Shown here piece after piece: positions 338 through 58,423 of a stretch of 64,000 nucleotides of DNA. Positions within the stretch are counted from its first letter, which is position 1. Each line of letters begins with the position of its first letter. The notes under the pieces were generated by a model. It did no database searches. It saw only the letters and a list, made by a program, of their open reading frames with translations, and had not been told where the DNA came from. The translations under genes and the position numbers were made by a program. The stretch comes from Candidatus Foliamicus sp. (GTDB lineage Bacteria > Pseudomonadota > Gammaproteobacteria > Steroidobacterales > Foliamicaceae), in the NCBI GenBank assembly GCA_965249285.1, contig OZ252226.1, forward strand, positions 1,256,068 through 1,320,067. The letters are read 5' to 3'.

Positions 338-450
338 CTTGCATGGAACAACCTGGGAACGAGGGCATCTTGCCCTCGCCGAGGGCTGGAAGCCCTCGTT
401 CCCAGCGTTGGTTCCCTGCGCGTCAGCGCAGCGGCGCCTGCTGCGAAAAC
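338..450. repeat. Composite REP-like element (modules C+A+B)
   Basis: The sequence reads ttgcatggaaca / ctgggaacgagggcatcttgccctcgccgagggctggaagccctcgttccca / gttccctgcgcgtcagcgcagcggcgcctgctgcgaaaac. The same modules recur at 10 or more other intergenic sites in the window. Confidence 0.85.
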
Positions 451-4075: not shown

Positions 4076-5329
4076 ATGAGCAGCGCCACCGCCCGTCTCG
4101 CCGCGGTCCCGGAACCGCTCTCGGTGGAACGACTGCGCGGCGACTTTCCCAGCCTTGCTACCCGCGTGCATGAAAAGCCGCTGGCCTACCTGGATAACGC
4201 CGCCTCCACCCAGCGGCCGCAGGCGGTCATGGACGCGGTCACCCATTACGAAATCGAAATGCACGCCAATGTGCACCGCGGAGTGCATGCGCGATCCGAC
4301 CGGGCCACTGCCGCCTTCGAGGCGGCTCGCGACCGCACGCGGGCCTGGCTGAATGCGGCTGCCAGCGAGGAAATCGTGTTCACCCGCGGGGCGACCGAAT
4401 CGATCAACCTCGTGGCTCGCTGTATGGATGCCCGCATGGACGCCGATTCGGAAATCCTGCTAACTCAGATGGAGCACCATTCCAATATCGTGCCCTGGCA
4501 GCAGCTATGCCAGCGCACCGGAGCCCGTATTCGGGTGGCCCCGGTGCTGGACTCGGGAGAACTCGACCTTGAGGCATTTCGTGGGCTCATCGGCCGCAAT
4601 CTCAAGTTGATTGCGGTGACCCACGTGTCCAATGCGCTCGGCGTGATCAACCCGGTTGCGGAGATTTGCCGGCTGGCGCGGCAATCCGGCGTTCCGGTTC
4701 TCATCGACGGCGCCCAGGCCGCCGGGCATATTTCCCTGGACGTGCAGGAACTGGACTGCGACTTCTACGCACTGTCGGGGCACAAGATGTACGCGCCCAC
4801 CGGCATCGGGGCGCTGTATGCGCGCAAACCCTGGCTGAATGACCTGCCGCCGTTCCTTGGCGGAGGGGAGATGATCCTCGAAGTGCGCTTTGACGGCACC
4901 ACCTACAACGATCCACCGCATAAGTTTGAAGCCGGGACCCCCAACATCTCCGGCGCCATTGGCCTGGGTGCGGCCATCGACTATCTGGCCGAACAGGGGC
5001 TGGAGCGCCTCGCGGCGCTGGAGCACGACCTGTTGCGGCATGCTACGGAGCGCTTGCAGGCCATTCCCGGCCTCAGGATCATCGGCACGGCGGAGCCCAA
5101 GTCCGCGGTTGTGTCGTTCGTGATCAACGATATTCATCCACATGACCTGGGGACCATCCTCGACCACGAAGGAATCGCTATCCGCGCCGGTCACCATTGC
5201 GCCATGCCGCTTATGGATCGATTTGGCCTGCCCGGTACCGCGCGCGCATCGTTTGCCTTCTACAACACCCACGACGAGGTGGACCGGCTGGCGGAAGGGA
5301 TAACAACCGCCCGGAAACTGTTCGGCTGA
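4076..5329 (+). CDS. sufS: Cysteine desulfurase SufS (class V aminotransferase)
   Basis: The track ORF 3854-5329 overlaps sufD, so I use the in-frame ATG at 4076 (MSSATARLAAV). Motifs seen are AYLDNAASTQRP, SGHKMYAPTGIGALY (PLP lysine) and RAGHHCAMPL (catalytic Cys loop). Confidence 0.93.
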   Translation: MSSATARLAAVPEPLSVERLRGDFPSLATRVHEKPLAYLDNAASTQRPQAVMDAVTHYEIEMHANVHRGVHARSDRATAAFEAARDRTRAWLNAAASEEIVFTRGATESINLVARCMDARMDADSEILLTQMEHHSNIVPWQQLCQRTGARIRVAPVLDSGELDLEAFRGLIGRNLKLIAVTHVSNALGVINPVAEICRLARQSGVPVLIDGAQAAGHISLDVQELDCDFYALSGHKMYAPTGIGALYARKPWLNDLPPFLGGGEMILEVRFDGTTYNDPPHKFEAGTPNISGAIGLGAAIDYLAEQGLERLAALEHDLLRHATERLQAIPGLRIIGTAEPKSAVVSFVINDIHPHDLGTILDHEGIAIRAGHHCAMPLMDRFGLPGTARASFAFYNTHDEVDRLAEGITTARKLFG

Positions 5330-5333
5330 AGCG

Positions 5334-5936
5334 ATGGGCGCGGACCTGCAAAGCCTGTATCAACGCACCGTGCTGGAGCACTGCCGCTCGCCACGCAACT
5401 TCCACGTAATCGAAGCTGCAGACCGGGTAGCCGAAGGATTCAACCCCCTGTGCGGCGACAAGGTTACCGTGTACCTGCGCGCATCCCCCTCCCCTGGGAA
5501 AGAGGGCATCCTGCCGCCTGGGAAGGAGGGCATCCTGCCCTCCAGCGAGCGCGAATCCCCCTCCCCTGAAAAGGAGGGCATCCTGCCCCCTGGGAAAGAG
5601 GGCATCCTGCCCTCCATCGAGCGCGAAACGCCCTCGCTCCCAGCATTTATTACCGAGCTGAGCTTCCAGGCCTCCGGATGCGCCATCTGCCTGGCTTCGG
5701 CGTCGATGATGATGGAATTGCTGGGTGGCGAGACGGCGGATGAAGCGCGCCGCCGCTCGGAGCAGGTACTCGGCGCGTTTCATCCGGGAGTCGAAGACGG
5801 TCTGAGCAACCTGGGCGACATCGTGGCGCTGGGAAGCGTTCGCGCCTACCCCTCCCGTATTCGCTGCGTCACCCTGCCGTGGAGAACCCTCACCGCCGCG
5901 CTGGACCGCGAACCAAACACGGTGAGCACGGAGTAA
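5334..5936 (+). CDS. sufU: SufU/NifU-N-type sulfur acceptor or scaffold with an in-frame repeat insertion of about 50 aa
   Basis: Three conserved Cys contexts are present: NPLCGD, SGCAICLASASMM and RIRCVTLPW. The length is 200 aa, against about 140-150 aa for B. subtilis SufU as recalled. The excess is the repeat at 5484-5627. Confidence 0.85.
   Translation: MGADLQSLYQRTVLEHCRSPRNFHVIEAADRVAEGFNPLCGDKVTVYLRASPSPGKEGILPPGKEGILPSSERESPSPEKEGILPPGKEGILPSIERETPSLPAFITELSFQASGCAICLASASMMMELLGGETADEARRRSEQVLGAFHPGVEDGLSNLGDIVALGSVRAYPSRIRCVTLPWRTLTAALDREPNTVSTE
5484..5627 (+). repeat. 2 x 72-bp tandem repeat inside sufU, derived from the REP family
   Basis: Unit 1 (5484-5555) and unit 2 (5556-5627) encode SPSPGKEGILPPGKEGILPSSERE and SPSPEKEGILPPGKEGILPSIERE. 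The string agagggcatcctgccctccatcgag (5598-5622) is identical to the intergenic REP copy at 31056-31080. Confidence 0.85.
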
Positions 5937-5940
5937 CTCG

Positions 5941-6492
5941 ATGTTCGGCAACCAGAGCGAACCGGTCACGCTGACCCGCGACTGCAAGGCAGTCATTATT
6001 CCCGCCGGCGAGGAAGCGCAGTTGCGCGCCGGACAACTGGTGTTCATCACCCAGTCCATGGGCGGCAGCTTTACGGTCTACGTGGACGGCTGGCTATACC
6101 GAATACCCGGCGCTGATGCCGACGCGCTGGGCAAGAGACCCGTGGAGCCCCCGAAACTGCCGGCGAACGCAGGCGACTCGGACGTGGAGGCCTTGGTGTG
6201 GGAGCAGATGAAGACCTGTTACGACCCGGAAATCCCGGTGAACATTGTCGACTTGGGACTGGTGTATTTCTGCGAGGTCAAGGGGCGCGAAGACGGCGAA
6301 CGCAACGTAGCGGTGGAAATGACGCTTACGGCGCCCGGCTGTGGCATGGGTGAAATCCTAGTGGAGGACGTGCGCGAGAAAATCGGCATTATTCCCACCA
6401 TCAAGGAGGTGTCCGTGGAACTGGTGTTCGACCCGCCCTGGAATCAGAGCATGATGTCCGAAGCGGCGCAACTCGAAGCCGGATTGATGTAG
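5941..6492 (+). CDS. sufT: Fe-S assembly protein SufT (long form with C-terminal DUF59/MIP18 domain)
   Basis: 183 aa. The C-terminal motif CYDPEIPVNIVDLGLVY...TLTAPGCGMG is DUF59-like. It is the last gene of the suf cluster. Confidence 0.8.
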   Translation: MFGNQSEPVTLTRDCKAVIIPAGEEAQLRAGQLVFITQSMGGSFTVYVDGWLYRIPGADADALGKRPVEPPKLPANAGDSDVEALVWEQMKTCYDPEIPVNIVDLGLVYFCEVKGREDGERNVAVEMTLTAPGCGMGEILVEDVREKIGIIPTIKEVSVELVFDPPWNQSMMSEAAQLEAGLM

Positions 6493-6502
6493 ACCACTAA
6501 CC

Positions 6503-6555
6503 CCTGGGAACGAGGGTATCTTGCCCTCGTCGAGGGCTGGAAGCCCTCGTTCCCG
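6503..6555. repeat. REP-like element (module A)
   Basis: Sequence cctgggaacgagggtatcttgccctcgtcgagggctggaagccctcgttcccgg, immediately after the sufT stop. Confidence 0.85.
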
Positions 6556-6619
6556 GCGGATGCCGAGCACATGTTTGCGTCTGCTACGATATGGGTGAGA
6601 TTGGAGAACATTTGGGTGG

Positions 6620-9600
6620 ATGTATGCAGGAATTGACATGGATACGCACGCTGAACCTCAAAGTAAGAAAGGCTTTTCCAGAGCTTCCGTCAAGAACAGA
6701 TTCCCGCTCAGATTCGTAACCGCCGCGAGCCTTTTTGACGGTCACGACGCCGCGATCAACGTGGTGCGGCGCCTGCTGCAGGCGGCCGGCGCGGAGGTCG
6801 TGCATCTCGGTCACAACCGCTCGGTCGAGGAAGTCGTAAGCGCCGCCATACAGGAGGACGTGCACGCAATCGCACTCAGTTCCTACCAGGGCGGCCACCT
6901 CGAATACTTCCGCTACGCCCTCGACATGCTGCGGGAGCGCGGCGCCGGCCATATCCGCATCTTCGGCGGTGGTGGCGGGGTAATCATCCCCGAAGAAGTT
7001 CGAAAACTGCATGAGTACGGCATAAGCCGTATCTACACGCCGGAAGACGGCCAGAAGATGGGTCTGAAGGGCATGATTGTCGACCTGTTCCGCAAGGCCC
7101 GCAAAGCCTTCAGTGACGACATGCTGTGCGTCTCCATGGAAGGTCTGGAAAACCGCGATTTCGGCGCGCTCAGCCGCGCCATTACATGCATAGAGCAGGG
7201 ATTGACGGATTCCATCGACTGGCCAGTCTCGGCGCGCGCGGCCCCGGTACTGGGTATTACCGGCACCGGCGGATCCGGCAAGTCGTCACTTACCGATGAA
7301 CTGGTGCGCCGTTTTCGCCTCTGCTTCGACGATCGTTTGCGGATCGCCATTATCGCCGTGGATCCTACGCGCCAGCGCACCGGCGGAGCACTGCTGGGCG
7401 ACCGCATTCGTATGAACGCAATCGACCATCCGGGCATCTTCATGCGCTCGCTGGGGACCCGCGCGTCAGCCCGCGAAATCCCCCTCGCCCTGCCCGAAAT
7501 CATCACGGCCACGCAGCTTGCCGGTTTTGATCTGATCATGGTTGAGACTTCCGGAATCGGACAGGGAGACGCCGCCATAACGTCCCATGTGGACACCAGC
7601 CTGTACGTAATGACACCGGAATTCGGGGCGGCGACCCAGTTGGAAAAGATCGACATGCTGGACTTCGCCGATGTTGTCGCCATCAACAAGTTCGACCGTA
7701 AGGGCGCGGCGGACGCTCTCAGAGACGTGCGCAAGCAGATGATCCGCAACCGGGAAGCGTTCGGAACCGAGCCCGAAGCAATGCCGGCGTACGGAGCCAT
7801 CGCCTCGCGGGTCAACGATAACGGGGTCACGGCCTTGTTCTACGGTTTGCTTGATACCCTGCGCGAGAAAGGCTTTGCTCCCGCGATCAAGGCCTGGGGC
7901 AAGCCGCTCATCGCGCCGGTCCAATCCAAGGTATCCTCGCGCGCCTCCGCGGTCATTCCCCCCGGGCGAACCCGCTACCTGGCGGAGATTGCCGAGACGA
8001 TTCGTGCTTATCACGACCGCGTCGCCCGGCAAAGCACGCTCGCCCGCGAGCGGCAAAGGCTCCGGGATGCGCATCGCTTGCTGGCGGAGGCCGGCGAGAA
8101 CAGCACGGATGAGTTGCAAGACCGGCTGGTATCTCTGGCACGCGAGCGCGACGCGGCTCTGGACCCAGACGCAGGCGAGCTGCTTGAGGAGTGGCCGGCC
8201 GTGCGCAGCGCTTACTCCGGAAAGGAATACCGGAAGAGCTCAAGCAAGGGCGAGACTCGAAACCCGCTTACCTACACCACGCTCTCCGGCAGCGAGTTGC
8301 GCAAGGTGTCCCTGCCCCACTACAGCGACGACGGCGACCTCCTTGCCTGGCTGATGCGGGAAAACCTGCCGGGGCGCTTTCCGTTTACGGCCGGGGTGTT
8401 TCCGTTCAAGCGCACGGGCGAGGATCCCTTGCGCATGTTCGCCGGTGAAGGTGACCCGGCGCGCACCAACCGGCGGTTTCACTATCTCTCGCGGCACTCT
8501 GAGGCGAAACGCCTGTCGACGGCGTTCGATTCGGTCACGCTGTACGGCTTCGATCCCCATCACCGCCCGGACATTTACGGAAAGGTCGGAAACTCGGGCG
8601 TTTCGATTGCCACCCTCGAAGACATGAAGGTGCTCTACGGGGGCTTCGAGTTGTGTAATCCCACCACTTCCGTTTCCATGACCATCAACGGCCCCGCGCC
8701 GACCATTCTGGCCATGTTTCTGAACACGGCGATCGACCAGCGGCTGGAAGCATTCGCATCCGAGAAGGGACGTCCGGCGGAAAGCGGAGAGGCCGAGGCA
8801 ATCAGGGCAGATGCGCTACAGCGGGTGCGCGGAACGGTGCAGGCGGACATCCTCAAGGAAGACCAGGGTCAGAACACCTGCATTTTTTCCACCGAGTTCA
8901 GCCTCAGGATGATGGGCGATGTTCAGGAGCACTTCATCCGGAAACAGGTCCGGCACTTCTACTCCGTTTCAATTTCCGGCTATCACATTGCCGAGGCCGG
9001 GGCCAACCCGATCAGCCAACTGGCCTTCACCCTGGCCAACGGCTTCACTTACGTTGAGGCCTACCTCGCGCGGGGCATGAATATCGATGAATTCTCCCCG
9101 AATTTCTCATTCTTCTTCTCCAACGGCATGGAACCCGAGTATTCGGTGCTTGGCCGGGTCGCGCGGCGCATCTGGGCGGTGGCCTTGCGCGACCGCTACG
9201 GCGCCAACGAGCGAAGCCAGAAACTCAAGTATCACGTGCAGACGTCGGGACGCTCGCTACATGCCCAGGAAATCGAATTCAACGACATCCGCACCACCCT
9301 GCAGGCGCTGATCGGCGCCTACGACAACTGCAACAGCCAGCACACCAACGCCTACGACGAAGCCATCACCACGCCCACTCAGGAAAGTGTGCGCCGGGCG
9401 GTGGCGATACAACTCATCATCAATCGAGAATGGGGATTGGCGAAGAACGAAAACCCCAATCAGGGTTCATTCGTGATCGAAGAGCTCACGGACCTGGTGG
9501 AGGAACAGGTACTACGCGAGTTCGAACGCCTGTCCGAGCGCGGCGGCGTGCTGGGCGCCATGGAAACGGGCTATCAACGCGGCAGAATCCAGGACGAGTC

Positions 9601-9931
9601 CCTGGACTACGAACAGCGCAAGCACGACGGCAGCCTGCCGATCATCGGAGTGAATACTTTCCTGCTCGATGAGCCGGCGGAAACGGTTTCCACAAGCATC
9701 CCCCTGGCCCGCTCCACCACGGAGGAGAAAGAAGGCCAGATTCGGCGCCTGGAAGCGTTTCACAAGACCCACGCGAACGAGGCCCCGGCAATGCTCGAGC
9801 GACTCCGCAACGCCGTAATGAGCGACGAAAACGTATTCGATGTCCTGATGGACGCGGTTCGCTGCTGCTCCCTGGGCCAGATTACCGACACCCTGTTTGC
9901 AGTAGGCGGCCAATACCGGCGCAACATGTAA
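6620..9931 (+). CDS. icmF: Fused isobutyryl-CoA mutase IcmF (B12-binding domain + MeaB-like GTPase + mutase catalytic domain)
   Basis: 1103 aa. The N-terminus has the B12-binding DGHDAAINV motif. The middle has the P-loop GTGGSGKSSL and NKFD. The C-terminus is a methylmalonyl-CoA-mutase-like barrel (FTAGVFPFKR, ISGYHIAEAGA). The alternative ATG at 6638 is equally possible. Confidence 0.9.
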   Translation: MYAGIDMDTHAEPQSKKGFSRASVKNRFPLRFVTAASLFDGHDAAINVVRRLLQAAGAEVVHLGHNRSVEEVVSAAIQEDVHAIALSSYQGGHLEYFRYALDMLRERGAGHIRIFGGGGGVIIPEEVRKLHEYGISRIYTPEDGQKMGLKGMIVDLFRKARKAFSDDMLCVSMEGLENRDFGALSRAITCIEQGLTDSIDWPVSARAAPVLGITGTGGSGKSSLTDELVRRFRLCFDDRLRIAIIAVDPTRQRTGGALLGDRIRMNAIDHPGIFMRSLGTRASAREIPLALPEIITATQLAGFDLIMVETSGIGQGDAAITSHVDTSLYVMTPEFGAATQLEKIDMLDFADVVAINKFDRKGAADALRDVRKQMIRNREAFGTEPEAMPAYGAIASRVNDNGVTALFYGLLDTLREKGFAPAIKAWGKPLIAPVQSKVSSRASAVIPPGRTRYLAEIAETIRAYHDRVARQSTLARERQRLRDAHRLLAEAGENSTDELQDRLVSLARERDAALDPDAGELLEEWPAVRSAYSGKEYRKSSSKGETRNPLTYTTLSGSELRKVSLPHYSDDGDLLAWLMRENLPGRFPFTAGVFPFKRTGEDPLRMFAGEGDPARTNRRFHYLSRHSEAKRLSTAFDSVTLYGFDPHHRPDIYGKVGNSGVSIATLEDMKVLYGGFELCNPTTSVSMTINGPAPTILAMFLNTAIDQRLEAFASEKGRPAESGEAEAIRADALQRVRGTVQADILKEDQGQNTCIFSTEFSLRMMGDVQEHFIRKQVRHFYSVSISGYHIAEAGANPISQLAFTLANGFTYVEAYLARGMNIDEFSPNFSFFFSNGMEPEYSVLGRVARRIWAVALRDRYGANERSQKLKYHVQTSGRSLHAQEIEFNDIRTTLQALIGAYDNCNSQHTNAYDEAITTPTQESVRRAVAIQLIINREWGLAKNENPNQGSFVIEELTDLVEEQVLREFERLSERGGVLGAMETGYQRGRIQDESLDYEQRKHDGSLPIIGVNTFLLDEPAETVSTSIPLARSTTEEKEGQIRRLEAFHKTHANEAPAMLERLRNAVMSDENVFDVLMDAVRCCSLGQITDTLFAVGGQYRRNM

Positions 9932-9952: not shown

Positions 9953-10080
9953 CCCTGGGAACGAGGGCTTCCAGCCCTCGACGAGGGCAAGATGCCCTCA
10001 TTCCCGAGCGTGTTCCCTGCGCGTCAGCGCAGCAGTGCCTGCTGCGAAAACTCCCAGGGAGGGCAGGATGCCCTCGTGCC
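9953..10080. repeat. Composite REP-like element (modules A+B+half A)
   Basis: Sequence ctgggaacgagggcttccagccctcgacgagggcaagatgccctcattccc + gttccctgcgcgtcagcgcagcagtgcctgctgcgaaaac + cagggagggcaggatgccctcg. It lies between the convergent icmF and hydrolase genes. Confidence 0.85.
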
Positions 10081-10830: not shown

Positions 10831-10885
10831 TCCTTATCTCCGATTGGTGGATGCCCGCATGGAGGAACCAGCGCGAGGGCGCCCC

Positions 10886-10945
10886 GCTGGGAACGAGGGC
10901 TGGAAGCCCTCGTTCCCAGGGAGGGCAGGATGCCCTCGTTCCCAT
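10886..10945. repeat. REP-like element between the two hydrolase paralogues
   Basis: Sequence ctgggaacgagggctggaagccctcgttcccagggagggcaggatgccctcgttccca. Confidence 0.85.
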
Positions 10946-10951
10946 GGGTCA

Positions 10952-11797
10952 CTAGGAGGATCGGGCGGCGGCCAGGAACAGGTCGGCGCAAGCTTGCGGT
11001 TCCGTGACCATGGCGTCGTGGCCGGTCTTCAGTTCCTCGTAGCGCCATTCGGGGCTTTCCTGCGCGAATTTGGCGTGATTGTTCAGCCCGCTGCCCGGCA
11101 TTGAAGGTTCGGTGCAGTTGATGAAGGTGCATGGCACACCTTGTTCGCCTCCGTTTTCGAACCTGACCGGGTCCAGCCAACTCTTCAGCGGGTGCGGGGT
11201 AAGCCGGCGATTCACCCAGGCCAGCACGTCGGCCGGCTCCGTAGGAATCCCGAACCGTTCGCCGGCAAAGCCCACGACGTAGTTCCCGTCCGGCGCAATT
11301 CGACGAAGCCGCTCCTTGTCCGCGGCGACATCCTCAGCGCTGATGTCCCGGCGCGCCGTCAGCAGGCTTTCTCCGTTGCGCGGAATGATCGCGTCGAGGT
11401 AAACCAGGTGGCGCATGCGCGCCTTCTCCCGGTCCGCGACACCGGAAATCACCAAGCCACCGTAAGAATGACCCACCAGCACGACGTTCTCGAGTTCTTC
11501 CCAAATCAGGGTGTTGACGATATCCATGATGTGGGTCTCGAGTCCGATATCAGGGTGAAGCAAATGGGCCCGCTCGCCGCAGCCGGTAAGCGTCGGCGTA
11601 TAGACTCGATGACCCTGTTCCTGAAGGATTTCGCGCACGAATTTCCAGCACCAACCGCCGTGGCCGGTGCCATGAACCAGAACAAACAGCACACTTTCCT
11701 CGGATCGCTCATGCGCTACGGCGCCCTGCACCCCGGCCGCCGCAACGGCCGCCCCGATAAATGCTCTGCGTGTTGCGGGAGACATAGTCCTACTCAA
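10952..11797 (-). CDS. Alpha/beta hydrolase with a twin-arginine (Tat) signal peptide
   Basis: N-terminus MSRTMSPATRRAFIGAAVAAAGVQGAVA matches S/T-R-R-x-F. The remainder is paralogous to 10087-10830 (LFVLVHGTGHGGWCWKF, LVGHSYGG). It overlaps the upstream permease stop by 8 nt. Confidence 0.85.
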   Translation of the reverse strand: MSRTMSPATRRAFIGAAVAAAGVQGAVAHERSEESVLFVLVHGTGHGGWCWKFVREILQEQGHRVYTPTLTGCGERAHLLHPDIGLETHIMDIVNTLIWEELENVVLVGHSYGGLVISGVADREKARMRHLVYLDAIIPRNGESLLTARRDISAEDVAADKERLRRIAPDGNYVVGFAGERFGIPTEPADVLAWVNRRLTPHPLKSWLDPVRFENGGEQGVPCTFINCTEPSMPGSGLNNHAKFAQESPEWRYEELKTGHDAMVTEPQACADLFLAAARSS

Positions 11798-14011: not shown

Positions 14012-14150
14012 CTTGCATGGAACAACGCTGGGAACGGGGGTGAGAACTTTCATGGAACCGGAACGACGGCGTCCCGCCCTCGGCGACGGCAGCATGCCCT
14101 CGTTCCATTGTTTCCTGCACGCCAGCGCAACGGCCCCCCGCTGTGAATAC
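14012..14150. repeat. Degenerate composite REP-like element
   Basis: Sequence cttgcatggaacaacgctgggaacggggg ... gcagcatgccctcgttcca ... tttcctgcacgccagcgcaacgg. These are recognisable but eroded copies of modules C, A and B. Confidence 0.6.
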
Positions 14151-14174: not shown

Positions 14175-16028
14175 CTACTGTACTGAGCACTCTGCGCACA
14201 GGTAATAGTAGCCGCGCGGATCGTTGAACAGCGCCAGTCGTTCCAGCTCCGTGTTGATGACCCGGCGTGCCTGCTGCACGGTGTCCATGAACCGGTCCGG
14301 CTCGGCGCGAAGACCAAGCCGATACTTCAGCCGGGCCCAGCGTACCTGCAGGAAGTCGTTTAAGCCGGTAAAGAAGGGCCGCTTGCGTTTAATGCGCTTC
14401 GTCCCATACTTCCCCTCCTCCAGACCGGCCAGCGCAGCGGCGCTGGCGATCGCGTCTTCCAGGGTGCCCAGGCTATCCACCAGGTTCAGGGATGCGGCAT
14501 CCGTGCCGGCCCAGACTCGCCCACGGCCAATTGCGTCCACTTCCTCAAAGGTCATGGCCCGCCCCAGCGAGACGTGGCCCACGAATCGATCGTAGACTCG
14601 GTCGACCTGCGCCGTTATTTGTCTGCGGGCATCGTCTTGCAGGTCCCTGCCCTCAAGCATGAGTCCCGACAGCGGGGTTGTTCCCAGGCCGTCCTGGGAA
14701 AAACCAATACGTTCAAATAGTAGTGGCGCCGTAAGAGCTAACGTTCCGACTCCGATCGATCCCGTTATGGTGCCTGGATAGGCCCAGATTTCGTCGGCCT
14801 CGGCCGCGACGTAGTAACCACCGGAAGCCGCCACGCTGCTCATCGATACCACGACCGGCTTGCCGGCTTCGGAAACGGTCGACACTGCAGCCGAGACCAC
14901 CTCGGACGCAAAAGCGCTTCCCCCCGTACTGTCGACCTGCAACACCAGGGCTTGCATGGATTCGTCCTCCGCGGCGTGGCGCACCAGCTTGGCGATGCTG
15001 TCACCGGCGGCCGTACCAGGACCCGCGCTGCCGTCGGTAATCGAGCCGACAACCGCAACGACCGCAACATTGTTGTCGTCATCCTTGTACGGAGGGTTCT
15101 CCCGGTCGGCCGTCTCAAGATAGCCAGCAAAGGGAACCTTGTTGTAGTCCCCATCTTCAGGGTCGCCGAAGCGTTCTTCCATGTATTCGGAAAACGTCTC
15201 CTCGTTGTAAATCGCGTCTACCAGGCCGGCCTCCACCTGTAGATTCGCAAGGTCGCCCCCAGCTTCCTCCAGGGTTTGCGTCAGGCCCGCCGCATACTGA
15301 TCCAATGCATCCGGAGCAAGCCCGCGTGCCTCAATAACCTCACGCTGGTACTCGCCCCATAGAACCCCCAGCCACTGTTCCGCGCTCCGGCGGTCCTCGT
15401 CCGACATGTTGCTGCGGAAATAGGGCTCCAGGAACGACTTGTATTCGCCTACGCGGAAAATATGCACATCGACGCCGAGTTTCTTGAATGCATCGCCGTA
15501 GTAGTAACCCCATCGTCCGTAGCCACGAATGTCCACGCCGCCCAGGTCATGCACGAACACCTCGTCGGCTTGCGCCGCAAGCAGGTAATCGGACTGGCTG
15601 TAAAAGCGGGCGTAGCTGATCATCGGCTTTCCCGATTCCCGGAACTTGCGCATCGCGGCGGCGATGTCCTGAAGCTTGGTAAAACCGCCGCCCGCAAGAT
15701 TCTCGGTATCCACCAGCACAGCGGTAATTCGATCGTCCTCAGCAGCGTGCTCAAGCGCCCGCACCACGTCCCGCACCAATGTCTCGGGTGGCGGCTCACC
15801 ACTCATGCGCTGCAATTCCAAGTCGAGCTCCCCGGCCTTGAGTTCATGCACCAATACGCCCGAAGGATTCAACAGTAGAACGCTGCCCGGCGTGATCTTC
15901 ACCGGAGACTTGCCTGATCCCAGCGCTGCAAGAATCATCACAAACACGAAAATCATCAGGACCAGGTGTATGACCTTGCGGAAACCGTCTACACCCGCCC
16001 AAAGGAACCCAAAGAATTTCTTTACCAC
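14175..16028 (-). CDS. sppA: Signal peptide peptidase SppA, 67K type (two tandem S49 domains)
   Basis: 617 aa with an N-terminal TM anchor. The two S49 halves carry GGFTKL.. and ASGGYYVAAEADEIWAYPGTITGSIGV. Confidence 0.9.
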   Translation of the reverse strand: MVKKFFGFLWAGVDGFRKVIHLVLMIFVFVMILAALGSGKSPVKITPGSVLLLNPSGVLVHELKAGELDLELQRMSGEPPPETLVRDVVRALEHAAEDDRITAVLVDTENLAGGGFTKLQDIAAAMRKFRESGKPMISYARFYSQSDYLLAAQADEVFVHDLGGVDIRGYGRWGYYYGDAFKKLGVDVHIFRVGEYKSFLEPYFRSNMSDEDRRSAEQWLGVLWGEYQREVIEARGLAPDALDQYAAGLTQTLEEAGGDLANLQVEAGLVDAIYNEETFSEYMEERFGDPEDGDYNKVPFAGYLETADRENPPYKDDDNNVAVVAVVGSITDGSAGPGTAAGDSIAKLVRHAAEDESMQALVLQVDSTGGSAFASEVVSAAVSTVSEAGKPVVVSMSSVAASGGYYVAAEADEIWAYPGTITGSIGVGTLALTAPLLFERIGFSQDGLGTTPLSGLMLEGRDLQDDARRQITAQVDRVYDRFVGHVSLGRAMTFEEVDAIGRGRVWAGTDAASLNLVDSLGTLEDAIASAAALAGLEEGKYGTKRIKRKRPFFTGLNDFLQVRWARLKYRLGLRAEPDRFMDTVQQARRVINTELERLALFNDPRGYYYLCAECSVQ

Positions 16029-16106: not shown

Positions 16107-16343
16107 AGTTTTCGCAGCGGGCGCCGCTACGCTGACGCGCAGGGAACCATGGAGCGAGGGTATCTTGCCCTCGTGGAGGGCCAGCTCCCCGACCCTGATC
16201 GGGGAGCTGGAAGCCTCCTCCCCAGGAAGTTGTCGCCCCCGTTCCGGCGGCGCTGACGCCCTCGGAACACGCCCTGGGAACGAGGACATCCTGTCCTCGA
16301 GGAGGGCTGGAAGCCCTCCTCCCCAGGTTGTTCCATGCAAGCG
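16107..16343. repeat. Largest REP cluster in the window (modules B, A, variant A, A, C)
   Basis: Sequence gagttttcgcagcgggcgccgctacgctgacgcgcagggaac + gagcgagggtatcttgccctcg.. + ggggagctggaagcctcctcccc + ctgggaacgaggacatcctgtcctcgaggagggctggaagccctcctcccc + aggttgttccatgcaagcg. Confidence 0.85.
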
Positions 16344-17465: not shown

Positions 17466-18715
17466 ATTCCAATCATCCAAAGAGAAAGCGAGGGCCAGAA
17501 GGCGATCAGCAGCACTGCTGCCATGAGCACCAGCAGGAACGGCAAGCTGGCCAGATATACGCGCACGATCGGCTGCTCGAACCTGTAACTGGCAATAAAC
17601 AGATTCAGACCCACCGGGGGCGTGAGGTAACCGAGTTGCATGGTCGCCAGGAATACGATGCCTAAATGAACCGGATGCACGCCGAATTGGGCGGCGATCG
17701 GAAGGATCAGGGGCACTATCAGGACTATGGCGGAAAAGACGTCCAGGAAAGCGCCCAGGATCAGCAGGAATATCAGCAGGGCGACCATGAAGCCCAGCGG
17801 CCCGCTGACGTATTCGCCAATTACCGACAACAGGCGCTGAGGGATTTCGGCGTCGATTATCAGGTTGGTGGAAGCCAAAGAAACCGCCAGGATCAGCAGG
17901 ATCCCGCCTACCAGGGTCATGGAATCGCGCATGATCAGGGGCAGCCGCGCAAGTGGAATCGCCCGGCGGATAAAGACTTCAACAACAACCACGTACAGGG
18001 CCGTGACCGCCGCCGCTTCCGAGATCGCGAAATAACCCGAATAGATTCCGCCGAGGACAACAGCCGGCAGCGGCAGTTCCCATCCAGCCGCCTTGAGGGC
18101 GCCGGCGGCTTCGCGCCAATCAAAACTCGCCAGGGGCTGGCGCTCGCTGCGATTGACCCAAAGGCAGTACGCGGACAACAGGACAATCATGATCAGGCCC
18201 GGCAGCACTCCGGCCAGGAACAGGGAGTCGATCCGGGTCTCGGACACCACGCCGTACAGGATCAGCGGCAAGGACGGGGCGAACAACAGACCGAGGCTGC
18301 CGCCGGTCGTGACCAGCCCGAGGGAGAACCGTTCCGAGTATCGCGCCTGTTTCAGCGCCGGGTAGAGCAATGCGCCCATGGCGATGATGGTGATGCCGGA
18401 CGCGCCGGTGAATGCCGTAAACAACGCGCATACCGCCAGCGCGAATATCGCCAGTCCGCCCGGCATCCAGCCAAACAGCGCTTCGCTGAGGCGCACCAGC
18501 AGCTTCGGCGCAGGACTTTCCGCCAGCACGTAGCCGGCAAAGCAGAACAGGGGAATCGCGACCAGCGTCGGCAGGGTGGCCACGCCCAGAATCTCCACCG
18601 CGATGGATGCCAGGGGCACGTCGGCCCGCAAGTACCCCAGGATTGCGCCGCCGGCAATGATTGCAAACAGCGGTACGCCCACGACGGCCAGCAGGGCAAG
18701 AAGAATCCAGTGCAT
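17462..18715 (-). CDS. dctM: TRAP transporter large permease subunit
   Basis: Start taken at MHWILLALLAVVGVPLFAII, just after the dctQ stop. The sequence is a typical DctM polytopic protein. Confidence 0.9.
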   Translation of the reverse strand: MHWILLALLAVVGVPLFAIIAGGAILGYLRADVPLASIAVEILGVATLPTLVAIPLFCFAGYVLAESPAPKLLVRLSEALFGWMPGGLAIFALAVCALFTAFTGASGITIIAMGALLYPALKQARYSERFSLGLVTTGGSLGLLFAPSLPLILYGVVSETRIDSLFLAGVLPGLIMIVLLSAYCLWVNRSERQPLASFDWREAAGALKAAGWELPLPAVVLGGIYSGYFAISEAAAVTALYVVVVEVFIRRAIPLARLPLIMRDSMTLVGGILLILAVSLASTNLIIDAEIPQRLLSVIGEYVSGPLGFMVALLIFLLILGAFLDVFSAIVLIVPLILPIAAQFGVHPVHLGIVFLATMQLGYLTPPVGLNLFIASYRFEQPIVRVYLASLPFLLVLMAAVLLIAFWPSLSLWMIGI

Positions 18716-22258: not shown

Positions 22259-22828
22259 CTAATCCGCCGCGTCCCAATCCACAACCAGACGGCGATCGGC
22301 GAGATTGACCTCCCGCACCCGGCTGCCGGGCAGGAACGGGATCAGCCGCCGCCGGTCCCCCTCGACGATCAGCACATCGTTGGCCCCTGTGGCCATCAGA
22401 CCGTTGACGGCGCCCAGGTGCTGGCCGGCAAGATTGCTCACTTCCAGGCCTTCGAGGTCAGCCCAATACCATTCATCCTTCCCGGCCGGCGGCAGGGCGG
22501 CGCGATTCACATGGATTGCCGCCCCGTTGAGGGCCTCCGCCGCTTCCCGGGTTTCGATGTCCTCAAGCCGGCATGCAAACCCATTGCCGGCCGTGCGAAG
22601 GCTCCGCAAAGTCACTTCTTTGTGCTGATCATTCACCAGGAGGGTCCAGTGACGGTAATTCTGCAGTTGCTCCGGGGGGTCGGCGTAGGACACCACCCGC
22701 AGCCAGCCCGCCAGTCCGTGAGCCGCGCCGAGGCGGCCCATGGGAATCAATGTCGCTTCGCGGGAAGCGTCGTCCGGCTGCTTCGGTTCAGCCGGAGTCC
22801 TTGTCGGTTTGAGTGGCGTTTTCGCCAT
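22259..22828 (-). CDS. rimM: 16S rRNA processing protein RimM
   Basis: Contains [18 protein letters not shown] and a PRC-barrel C-terminus. The start is uncertain. ATG 22828 overlaps the extended rpsP tail by 41 nt, and ATG 22741 would cut into the conserved N-terminus. Confidence 0.8.
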
Positions 22829-23636
22829 TTTCCTGTCCGCCGTCGTCGGCTGGCGTGGCCTCATCAGTTGCCTCATCTGCCGTAGTGGCGGCCTCTACCT
22901 CTGCTTCTTCGGTACCTGCTTCTTCCGAGGCGGCGACCTCTGCCTCAGCTTTCTGCCCTTGTGCTCCTCCCTCGGCGGCAGCTTCCTCCACTGCCTCGGG
23001 AGCGGCAGCTTTCGCTGTCTCAGCCTCTACTTCTTTTGCAGCGTCTTCCTCGGATACTGCTTCCTCTGCCGGATCTGCCTCCTTGGCCGGAGCTGCCTCC
23101 TTGGCCGGAGCTGCCTCCTTGGCCGGAGCTGCCTCCTTGGCTGGAGCTGCTTCCTTGGCCGGAGCTGCCTCCTTGGCCGGAGCTGCTTCCTTGGCCGGAG
23201 CTGCCTCCTTGGCCGGAGCTGCTTCCTTGGCCGGAGCTGCTTCCTTGGCCGGAGCTGCCTCCTTGGCCGGAGCTGCCTCCTTGGCCGGAGCTGCTTCCTT
23301 GGCCGGAGCTGCTTCCTCTGCCGGAGCCGCTTCCTCGGTGACTGAGGCCGCCTCAGTAACAACTTCCTGCGGCGCCTCGGCAATCGCACTGCCTTCTATG
23401 CGGCGGCGGCGAATCAATTGCCGCACCCGCTCCGAAGGCTGGGCACCCTGCCCCAACCAGTAATCGACGCGGTCCAGCGATAGTTGCAGGGGCTGCTCGC
23501 CACCGGTCGCGATCGGGTTGTAGAAACCGAGGCGCTCGAGAAACCGCCCGTTGCGCTTATTGCGCCGGTCGGTTACCACGATGTGATAAAAGGGTCGTTT
23601 CTTGGCCCCGTGACGGGATAGCCGTATGCCTACCAT
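22788..23636 (-). CDS. rpsP: 30S ribosomal protein S16 with a low-complexity C-terminal extension of about 200 aa
   Basis: The N-terminal 80 aa are canonical ([41 protein letters not shown]). After that the frame stays open through an E/A/P/K-rich tail, giving 282 aa in total. Confidence 0.85.
23067..23336. repeat. 15 tandem 18-bp repeats (ggccggagctgc[c/t]tcctt) inside rpsP
   Basis: Direct reading of the sequence. The repeats encode (K/E)EAAPA hexapeptides on the minus strand. The main inter-unit variation is c/t at one position, which is synonymous (GAG/GAA). Confidence 0.95.
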
Positions 23637-30927: not shown

Positions 30928-30976
30928 CGTTCACACGCCTCTCACTTGACCTTTAAGTTTATCCCCGTATAGCACT

Positions 30977-31125
30977 TGGGAGAGAGGACTTCCTGCCCTC
31001 CACCTGGGAGAGAGGACTTCCTGGGAGGGAGGGCTTCCAGCCCTCCACCTTGGGAGAGAGGGCATCCTGCCCTCCATCGAGGGCTGGAAGCCCTCGATCC
31101 CAGCGGGGAAGCCCTCGTTCCCAGG
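30977..31125. repeat. REP cluster, gggaga/ctcc variant
   Basis: Sequence tgggagagaggacttcctgccctccacc x2, gggagggcttccagccctccacc, tgggagagagggcatcctgccctccatcgagggctggaagccctcgatccca, ggggaagccctcgttccca. Confidence 0.85.
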
Positions 31126-48467: not shown

Positions 48468-48489
48468 CTACTGGCTCCCCTACGGTGTC

Positions 48490-48568
48490 GGGAGCGAGGG
48501 CGTACCCGCGCTTGACGAGGGCAAGATGCCCTCGTTCCCAGGCTCTCGGTGCAATGTGTTCCATGCAG
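48490..48568. repeat. REP-like element in the grpE / nadK divergent region
   Basis: Sequence gggagcgagggcgtacccgcgcttgacgagggcaagatgccctcgttccca ... gtgttccatgcagg. Confidence 0.75.
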
Positions 48569-52021: not shown

Positions 52022-52078
52022 CCCCGGGAACGAGGACATCCTGTCCTCGACGAGGGCTGGAAGCCCTCCTTCCCGGGG
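52022..52078. repeat. REP-like palindrome between convergent bamE and rnfH
   Basis: Sequence ccccgggaacgaggacatcctgtcctcgacgagggctggaagccctccttcccgggg. It fills the whole convergent gap, so a bidirectional terminator role is plausible. Confidence 0.85.
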
Positions 52079-52354
52079 TCAACTTGCCGCCCGGCGGCGT
52101 GCGTCCATCGGATCGTTCTCCAGGGGCCGGTATATCTCAAGCCGGTCGCCGCCCTTGGGCCGGTAGTCATCGTCGACCCTGGCGCCGAACACGCCGATCG
52201 GGCAGGTCGCAGCATTGATTTCCGGGAACAAGGCCGCCATGCACGACAGCTTGACGGCCTGGCGTGCGGTGCAATCGCGCGCAACACGCAAGCGCAGCAC
52301 ACGCTGTGCGCCGGGCACCGCGTAACTCACTTCAACAGCAAGCTCATCACCCAT
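52079..52354 (-). CDS. rnfH: RnfH family ubiquitin-fold protein (UPF0125/RatB)
   Basis: 91 aa, downstream of and overlapping ratA, as in E. coli. Confidence 0.85.
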   Translation of the reverse strand: MGDELAVEVSYAVPGAQRVLRLRVARDCTARQAVKLSCMAALFPEINAATCPIGVFGARVDDDYRPKGGDRLEIYRPLENDPMDARRRAAS

Positions 52355-53534: not shown

Positions 53535-53605
53535 GAGTTTTCACAGCAGGCGCCGCTGCGCTGACGTGCAGGGAACACGTTGGGAACGAGGGCATCCTGC
53601 CCGCG
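53535..53605. repeat. REP-like element (module B + half of module A)
   Basis: Sequence gagttttcacagcaggcgccgctgcgctgacgtgcagggaacacgttgggaacgagggcatcctgccc. Confidence 0.8.
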
Positions 53606-58239: not shown

Positions 58240-58423
58240 GTCACAGCGGTTCCCGCTGCGCTGACCGCAGGGAACACGCTGGGAACGAGGGCTTCCAGCC
58301 CTCGGCGAGGGCAAGATGCCCTCGTTCCCGGGTTGTTCCATGCAAGTGTTCACCACGGTTCCCGCGGCGCTGGCCGCAGGGAACAAGCGCTGGATTTTCC
58401 CACCTTTTGTTCCATGCAAGCGT
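58240..58423. repeat. Composite REP cluster (B, A, C, B-variant, C)
   Basis: Sequence gtcacagcggttcccgctgcgctgaccgcagggaac + ctgggaacgagggcttccagccctcggcgagggcaagatgccctcgttccc + gggttgttccatgcaagtg + ..ggttcccgcggcgctggccgcagggaac.. + ttgttccatgcaagcg. Confidence 0.85.

Follow-up and report, generated by a model that had tools for sequence, protein, structure and literature searches.

In this work we analysed a 64,000-nt stretch of the chromosome of Candidatus Foliamicus sp. (contig OZ252226.1, positions 1,256,068 to 1,320,067 of the forward strand; hereafter the window, whose own numbering is used unless a relative is named), and in particular an array of palindromic repeats that lies in frame inside its sufU gene. 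The genes of the SUF pathway of Fe-S assembly follow one another in the order rrf2 regulator, sufB, sufC, sufD, sufS, sufU and sufT, and the order from sufB to sufT is the same in relatives. The open reading frame (ORF) that hosts the array, at 5334-5936, was matched by TIGR01994 with 100.9 bits (cut-off 92.5) in two stretches divided by the insert, as well as by Pfam NifU_N. It encodes SufU, the zinc-dependent sulfur transfer protein of the pathway, and its residues Cys40, Asp42, Cys116 and Cys178 are conserved and aligned with the B. subtilis ligands C41, D43, C66 and C128. In comparison to 10 relatives, the ratio of nonsynonymous to synonymous substitution rates (dN/dS) of the core was 0-0.26, with values of 0.09-0.26 in the nine that showed measurable divergence; thus sufU is functional and its part outside the tract is under purifying selection. 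No second sufU- or iscU-like gene was found by a search of the window.

The repetitive nature of the insert was examined by Tandem Repeats Finder (TRF), which reported an array at 5477-5635 with a period of 72, 2.2 copies, 89% matches, 0% indels and a score of 255, and a nested 24-nt period at 5491-5612 with 5.1 copies. A preliminary description of this DNA had claimed two in-frame 72-bp tandem units with defined peptides, and both TRF and the codon register bear this out: the units at 5484-5555 and 5556-5627 begin on codon boundaries and are mismatched at 6 of 72 nucleotides, with no indel. Inside sufU there are four exact copies of the 14-mer GAGGGCATCCTGCC. When up to two mismatches are allowed, the window contains 30 occurrences of this 14-mer where 1.33 are expected from shuffles, and none of 100 shuffles reaches 30. 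The 25-mer AGAGGGCATCCTGCCCTCCATCGAG is identical in sufU (5597-5621) and in an intergenic copy; the identity had been noticed before, but with the intergenic coordinate one base off, the actual position being 31057-31081.

For a search with nhmmer we built a profile from seven doublets, all of them intergenic and none from sufU, and this profile, searched against the window, recovered four segments of sufU (Table 1). The intergenic-only profile match, the 14-mer enrichment and the common 25-mer all uphold the earlier assignment of the sufU DNA to a family resembling repetitive extragenic palindromic (REP) sequences: the tract is DNA of this genome's intergenic repeat family. It consists of two rounds of a left half followed by a left half with the spacer and the start of a right half, and then of one complete doublet. 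The half-sites described earlier in the tandem units are indeed there, but the extent had been set too short, since the tract reaches 5645 and its last 57 nt (5589-5645) make up a whole doublet. The right mini-hairpin of this doublet is degenerate (GAGCGC-GAAAC-GCCCTC), and its RNA fold has an energy of -28.8 kcal/mol (z = -4.67), with 0 of 200 shuffles equally stable.

Outside the genes, the canonical doublet of the family is about 55 nt long and reads CTGGGAACGAGGGC-ATCTT-GCCCTCGnCGAGGGC-TGGAA-GCCCTCGTTCCCAG. The family unit is made of two GAGGGC-N5-GCCCTC mini-hairpins enclosed within an outer stem, CTGGGAAC/GTTCCCAG, and the RNA of the canonical doublet forms a single long hairpin (-45.2 kcal/mol, z = -7.7). 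None of the six frames of this doublet contains a stop codon, which accounts both for the spurious ORFs that run across intergenic copies and for the viability of an in-frame copy. The census of the window with the profile gave 11 intergenic loci and one coding locus, sufU (Table 1); no other gene in the window carried a repeat copy at E < 1e-3 in this search. Of the ORFs adjoining repeat copies, 10 were scanned with Pfam and matched housekeeping families only, and an Rfam scan of the whole window yielded no match at the gathering score.

One doublet (31049-31105) of the intergenic cluster at 30975-31125 has an unusual 4-nt CATC spacer and holds the 25-mer in common with the sufU copy. This suggests that the sufU copy and the cluster exchanged sequence, in one direction or the other. 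A derivation of the intergenic family from sufU was considered and rejected as the main direction, because outgroup SufUs are without the tract and the intergenic copies are many. We also observed a second repeat, GTTCCCTGCGCGTCAGCGCAGC, which is part of a longer GC-rich palindromic motif and has four matches in the window against 0.01 expected. They are located at 411-432, 10012-10033, 16126-16147 and 53555-53576, each adjoining a palindromic repeat copy, and the two repeats may form a composite element.

Table 1. The in-frame repeat tract of sufU, its host and neighbouring genes, and the intergenic repeat loci of the window
Feature	Position	Strand	Evidence
sufU coding sequence, 200 aa, host of the insert	5334..5936	+	TIGR01994, Pfam NifU_N, core dN/dS, AlphaFold 2 core
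Whole repeat-derived in-frame tract, residues 50-104, 24-nt register	5481..5645	+	TRF, nhmmer, codon register, gap in PDB alignment, pLDDT
72-bp tandem unit 1, encodes SPSPGKEGILPPGKEGILPSSERE	5484..5555	+	Sequence reading, TRF, codon register
72-bp tandem unit 2, encodes SPSPEKEGILPPGKEGILPSIERE	5556..5627	+	Sequence reading, TRF; 66/72 nt identical to unit 1
Left half-site copy, profile positions 1-23	5493..5515	+	nhmmer E = 5e-4
Left half, spacer and start of right half, profile positions 1-40	5517..5555	+	nhmmer E = 2.5e-6
Left half-site copy, profile positions 2-24	5566..5588	+	nhmmer E = 0.026; exact 14-mer
Complete in-frame doublet, encodes PGKEGILPSIERETPSLPA	5589..5645	+	nhmmer positions 1-56/57, 35.8 bits, E = 4.3e-10
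sufS, cysteine desulfurase, upstream partner of SufU	4076..5329	+	TIGR01979, 559 bits
sufT (FeS_assembly_P), downstream gene	5941..6492	+	TIGR03406, 257.6 bits
Intergenic doublet upstream of rrf2 regulator, canonical copy	352..408		nhmmer 67.4 bits; fold -45.2, z = -7.7
Intergenic doublet between sufT and icmF	6503..6558		nhmmer 65.3 bits
Intergenic doublet and extra half-site between icmF and hydrolase gene	9954..10079		14-mer, nhmmer
Intergenic repeat cluster between two hydrolase genes	10885..10945		TRF period 26, nhmmer
Intergenic repeat copy	14060..14106		nhmmer
Two intergenic repeat copies	16151..16328		nhmmer
Intergenic repeat cluster, tandem left half-sites (periods 17, 45)	30975..31125		TRF, 25-mer, nhmmer
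Intergenic repeat copy between grpE and NAD kinase gene	48489..48542		nhmmer
Intergenic doublet	52023..52079		nhmmer
Intergenic half-site downstream of smpB	53581..53604		nhmmer
Intergenic doublet	58279..58333		nhmmer

To locate the insert in the protein, the window SufU was aligned with B. subtilis SufU from the PDB (5xt5, 1xjs). Residues 2-49 of the query correspond to residues 4-50 and residues 106-193 to residues 56-143, the latter almost without gaps and with the segment of SufU type between the second and third cysteines, and the 56 residues in between (50-105) replace a five-residue turn, LDGDI. The insert is thus placed between Cys40 (NPLCGD) and Cys116 (GCAIC), at the turn which in the B. 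subtilis protein joins the strand that follows Cys41/Asp43 to the one that precedes Cys66. This agrees with the position proposed earlier, a turn between the first cysteine and the GCxxC strand with the cysteines (C40, C116 and C178) kept.

The structure was then predicted by AlphaFold 2 on the basis of an alignment of 125 sequences that included representatives at 50% identity; it replaced a shallower input of 34 in-clade sequences, for which the mean predicted local distance difference test score (pLDDT) was 41. The model had a mean pLDDT of 84.7, with a core of at least 90, and the core resembled the SufU crystal structures 2qq4, 6jzv and 5xt5 with target-normalised template modelling scores of 0.85-0.90. 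Residues 53-103 were modelled as coil with pLDDT of 47-58, between strands 42-52 and 104-114. A structure prediction had been proposed as a check for a surface loop, and the model is in agreement with one: the insert is predicted to be a low-confidence coil, projecting as a surface loop at the tip of the beta2-beta3 hairpin and leaving the fold undisturbed. In M. tuberculosis SufU, the residues in contact with SufS (Leu5, Tyr9, Cys40, Gly41, Asp42, Gly66, Cys67, Ser68, Arg128 and Cys131) all surround the zinc site (PMC10216065), and their counterparts are conserved in the window SufU. Judging by the hairpin geometry, the beta2-beta3 turn would lie at the end of the hairpin opposite Cys40/Cys116. 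Low-complexity inserts of other kinds are found at this turn in unrelated SufU lineages (P0133, P0183, P0190 and P0195), which indicates that the turn is generally permissive. We also noticed inserts elsewhere in the family: in P0154, P0197, P0200, P0213 and P0236 they are found between the second and third cysteines, in the SufU-specific segment before the third cysteine, and P0126 resembles an internal duplication of the C-terminal half.

In the next step we turned to the relatives. The search of the protein collection returned 1040 homologues, of which the best 120 were compared for length. These had 113-232 residues, or 151-232 among those covering the whole query, and nearly all of the variation in length was found at this one site. 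The repeat-derived insert is present at the same codon position in relatives 55-100% identical, which belong to Candidatus Foliamicus and allied metagenome-assembled genomes (MAGs). The clade with the insert is made up of over 100 protein clusters, with identities as low as about 55%, and its inserts are 6-91 residues long. In the commonest class (19 clusters) the insert is a single doublet, encoding TPGxEGVPPSxEDGTSSLPGVIAE. The shorter orthologues retain recognisable remnants: L005 has kept a single hairpin, L006 the right end and L007 the left half. In the nearest outgroups (P0121 and P0123) the turn is short and ordinary, with no insert. Among the representatives at 50% identity, most SufUs have a length of 145-156 residues; they lack the insert and align to the query in two separate stretches. 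Since the repeat DNA is present throughout the clade and absent from the nearest outgroups, its occupancy of the site must be old. Thus, of the two alternatives raised for this insert, lineage-specific or strain-specific, the alignment of orthologues supports the former for the insert as such, but the copy number is indeed specific to the strain. In the genome collection, the closest genomes were MAGs of 'Candidatus Foliamicus sp.' and unclassified Gammaproteobacteria; a literature search on 'Foliamicus' found no paper.

We then compared the orthologue DNA of the relatives, with the inserts laid out in codon register. The number of 24-nt rows in the insert was 7 in the window, 3 in L081, 10 in L082 and 11 in L002, and the inserts of L001 and L084 contained 21-nt periods. 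The periods in coding DNA (21, 24, 48 and 72 nt) are all multiples of three; those of the intergenic arrays in the window are 26, 45 and 17. The rate of change can be judged from L081, which is 98% identical to the window over sufS-sufT and has one synonymous change in 142 core codons (dS 0.009), and whose insert is 96 nt shorter than that of the window. The window, five of its closest relatives (P0002-P0006) and L088 all have different alleles. Compared with the remainder of sufU, the tract changes at a much higher rate.

Two of the alleles are informative about the reading frame. In L085 (10156-10213 of that sequence) the sufU doublet lies in the opposite orientation, with the TTCCA loop first, and a canonical 3-nt spacer together with a 6-nt loop makes a compensated frameshift, by which the peptide becomes PGKEGFQPSSRAGTPSFPA. 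In L088 (2885-3558) one unit is of 23 nt, a G having been lost from a GGG run; the frame is shifted and sufU is split, and the gene was called as a truncated protein of 185 aa (P0015) with an out-of-frame N-terminus. The tract can mislead gene callers, as this case illustrates, and attract homopolymer errors of long reads.

To see at which level the insert is conserved, we counted codons at the repeat stem positions. In these counts, which are suggestive, GAG was used in 38 of 39 cases (background 49%), GGC in 27 of 27 (55%) and CCC in 38 of 44 (40%). At the fifth stem base pair of the right half, the residue pair was either D/S (GAC...TCC, 39 cases) or G/P (GGC...CCC, 21 cases), with nine mixed. 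Since D/S corresponds to an A-T and G/P to a G-C stem pair, the position is paired in 60 cases and unpaired in 9. The coding copies also keep the hairpin fold (z = -4.7 to -5.8), and two residues encoded by the loops shift with the repeat subtype (IL, VP, FQ or TL). The conservation in the insert is at the nucleotide level and not at the peptide level.

A census of mini-hairpin loops extended this comparison to the flanking DNA. In all genomes that had both (10/10), the sufU subtype was the same as the flanking intergenic subtype. L001, at a dS of 0.10 from the window, has GTCCC/GGGAC loops in its two sufU copies and in 8 of 8 flanking copies, and the window has the ATCCT loop in sufU and loops of the ATCTT/ATCCT/TGGAA type in 18 of 19 intergenic mini-hairpins. 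The more distant relatives L083 and L002 have the same loop type as the window. In the orthologous spacer between sufT and icmF, the flanks can be aligned between relatives, but the repeat content differs. Taken together, conservation, subtype tracking and the findings in L085 show that the copy in sufU, far from being a frozen relic, shares in the family's turnover, subject to a filter for reading frame.

A further observation concerns L001 as a whole. It is about 95.5% identical to the window in sufS-sufT and carries the other loop subtype at orthologous intergenic sites (GTCCC/GGGAC vs ATCTT/TGGAA), as found by comparing its sites 11107-11197, 14620-14676, 15504-15555 and 18633-18685 with 6503-6558, 9954-10008 and others of the window. 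It seems that in L001 the whole repeat population was replaced in place within a short divergence.

We propose, with a probability of roughly 0.8, that an old in-frame copy at a permissive hairpin tip, remodelled by slippage or recombination and by homogenisation, forms a disordered loop which is tolerated by the protein. The model starts from what the comparison shows: the codons of the beta2-beta3 turn of SufU are occupied in frame by a member of the intergenic palindromic family, and have been for a long time. Replication slippage, or else unequal recombination between half-sites in direct orientation, would make the tract grow and shrink, and gene conversion, template switching or re-insertion could keep it similar to the intergenic family. 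The sole effect of selection on sufU would be to filter out variants that lose the frame. The Pro/Gly/Glu/Ser-rich segment encoded by the tract is predicted to be a disordered loop, most probably tolerated because it projects from the hairpin tip, with the Zn/persulfide site and the SufS contacts at the other end. We therefore regard the insert as a putative tolerated passenger rather than a functional domain. If the domestication of which the preliminary description spoke is taken to mean that the insert gained a function, our data do not demonstrate it; they fit a tolerated passenger that is still exchanged with the intergenic family or homogenised by it.

Several points weigh against this explanation. 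We infer translation of the full-length product from conservation only. The codon counts and the covariation count of 60 to 9 include paralogous units and related genomes, and are suggestive rather than independent. No motif of a transposase of the REP-associated tyrosine transposase (RAYT) type (HUH...Y..NP) was present in the six frames of the window, which is about 2% of the 3.2-Mb chromosome. The 1-nt deletion in L088 is either a homopolymer sequencing error or a real mutation, in which case the tract carries a real cost. Finally, L004 and L087 have a near-perfect palindrome in sufU and few or no other copies within 10-20 kb, which would be compatible with direct selection for the hairpin as well.

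The last point leads to the main rival explanation, in which the hairpin itself is selected as an RNA or DNA cis-element of the suf operon, such as a site of processing, stabilisation or pausing in the suf transcript or a target of a repeat-binding protein, and the peptide is a by-product. The synonymous stem positions fixed far past codon bias, the stem base pair that covaries over the homologues (60 paired vs 9 unpaired) and the palindromes of L004 and L087, near-perfect despite the scarcity of copies around them, are all in favour of such a role. However, in the window the right mini-hairpin is degenerate (-28.8 vs -45.2 kcal/mol), copy number and arrangement vary freely among close strains, and only remnants are left in L005, L006 and L007. 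The subtype tracks the intergenic family, which homogenisation accounts for without any function, and neither a terminator- or promoter-like signal in the tract (scan of 5200-6700) nor an Rfam match was found. We thus consider a selected hairpin unlikely as the explanation. The units might alternatively be selected as protein, with PGKEGILPS serving as a flexible linker or interaction motif and the likeness to intergenic DNA being secondary. Such a module could explain why the segment has stayed in frame over a long divergence and why the peptide of the single doublet is alike in many clusters, but it leaves the conservation at the nucleotide level, third codon positions included, without a reason. 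Besides, the loop residues vary with the repeat subtype of the genome (IL, VP, FQ, TL), the number of units ranges from 0 to about 11 with some orthologues almost without the insert, and the segment is predicted to be unstructured, with the same sequence occurring 11 times between genes in 64 kb. A protein module is, in our opinion, very improbable.

The very fast turnover of alleles, together with the 23-nt unit that frameshifts the gene in L088, could also point to a contingency locus, at which frequent changes in length, frameshifts among them, switch or tune SufU in the manner of phase variation. Yet all other alleles examined are in frame (21, 24, 48 and 72 nt), the sole frameshift consists in a G lost from a GGG run in an assembly whose contig names suggest error-prone long reads, and on/off switching of a core Fe-S pathway gene would bring no obvious benefit, which makes this explanation highly improbable. 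As to an assembly artefact, tandem repeats are prone to mis-assembly, but tracts of this type recur at this position in over a dozen independent assemblies, megabase contigs among them, and the tract, of 159 bp, is shorter than any long read; a pseudogene is contradicted by the intact frame and the core dN/dS of 0.09-0.26. We give hardly any credence to either of these.

A bolder idea goes beyond the tolerated passenger, and we put it forward as tentative only: the sufU site could be a long-lived, active landing pad of the repeat system, and/or its hairpin could be selected as a suf cis-element. In the first case, whatever machinery or recombination process turns over the intergenic copies would also rewrite this stretch of coding sequence again and again. 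The landing pad is suggested by the switch of subtype within a dS of about 0.1, by the inverted orientation and by the compensated frameshifts. If either were true, the relatives would offer a natural allele series, from 0 to about 11 units, of a selfish palindromic repeat creating protein sequence.

How does the sufU tract compare with known systems? In coding tandem repeats of variable number, in-frame units expand and contract by slippage, which leads to length-polymorphic low-complexity segments, and the classic cases are surface or secreted proteins. In sufU, by contrast, the repeat unit is a copy of an intergenic palindromic family and the host is a small, conserved partner of a housekeeping enzyme. 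The tract does not have the features of a phase-variable locus either, as its periods are all multiples of three and its sole frameshift is that of L088, which may be a sequencing error. It does have those of an in-frame intragenic palindromic repeat, being a stop-free copy of the genome's own family in an ORF of a known family, with the host under purifying selection.

Such intragenic repeats have precedents. The Rickettsia palindromic elements (RPEs) are inserted into protein genes with the frame kept (Ogata et al. 2000, as cited in PMC3184786 and PMC3733652), and in R. bellii 53 of 526 RPEs are in protein genes (PMC1458961). As far as these accounts go, the likeness to sufU is that of a palindromic family spread over the genome, with some copies inside ORFs, in frame, and compatible with a working host protein. 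RPEs are, however, of about 105-146 bp and single insertions in the cases described there, whereas in sufU a doublet of about 55 nt was expanded into a tandem array. Unlike in those cases, the array is made of half and whole units, and its copy number differs among near-identical strains. The hosts also differ, with a free-standing gammaproteobacterial genome of 3.2 Mb here and a reduced obligate intracellular one in the case of RPEs.

The second precedent is that of intragenic GTAG/CGTC-tagged REPs, reported for several species (Di Nocera et al. 2013, PMC3733652). According to the passages of that paper on which we draw, they encode 20-30 residues, or 43-82 residues as clusters in Thauera and R. 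conorii, and are read by the authors as tolerated decorations. They are similar to the sufU repeats as short stem-loops, often in dimers or clusters, within known protein genes; the sufU family, however, is without a clear GTAG or CGTC head, and in the supplementary lists of intragenic REPs of PMC3733652 there is no Fe-S assembly gene, with no entry for NifU, SufU or IscU. The in-frame repeat had been called rare, and it is uncommon, but not without parallel, as the RPEs and these intragenic REPs had already been described.

The REPs and the REP doublets forming hairpins (REPINs) of Escherichia and Pseudomonas are described as short GC-rich imperfect palindromes, mostly intergenic (PMC3733652, PMC8049555). 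As presented in the parts of these papers used here, they resemble our family in being often paired in inverted orientation and in evolving as a sequence population within the genome, but classical REPINs are reported as extragenic and the sufU copy is coding. Our family is likewise a stable, short GC-rich palindrome and mostly intergenic, with 11 intergenic loci in 64 kb. The head, however, is different: the copies in the window begin with (C/T)(C/T)GGGAAC and have CGNCG, in which N varies, at the centre, and GTAG stands beside the stem only in one single-hairpin copy of the relative L007. Because no RAYT was seen in the window and the head tetranucleotide is missing, membership in the RAYT-mobilised REPs is unproven. 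Compared with the cases described in the portions of the literature cited above, sufU adds the clade-wide persistence at one codon position, the variation of copy number at the level of strains and the tracking of the intergenic subtype.

For in-frame palindromic copies, it can rarely be resolved whether they are frozen relics or members of a living repeat population, and here more than a dozen genomes give the answer for one case, in which the copy number changes faster than point substitutions build up. The sufU tract may thus serve as a compact natural system for studying how selfish repeats add sequence to essential proteins and how much loop the SufU beta-hairpin can tolerate.

Two other genes of the window deserve mention. 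Directly 3' of the suf operon, at 6620-9931 (+), there is a gene for a 1103-aa fused B12-dependent mutase with a MeaB-like GTPase domain. Its architecture is of the IcmF type, judged by the Pfam families recorded for its orthologues, and repeat copies lie on either side of it. The ribosomal protein S16 gene, at 22788-23636 (-), encodes 282 residues, with Pfam Ribosomal_S16 on residues 8-68. Its tail is acidic and rich in Ala, Glu and Pro, with about 15 tandem EAAPAK units, which correspond to an 18-bp repeat at 23057-23335 (15.5 copies, 93% matches).

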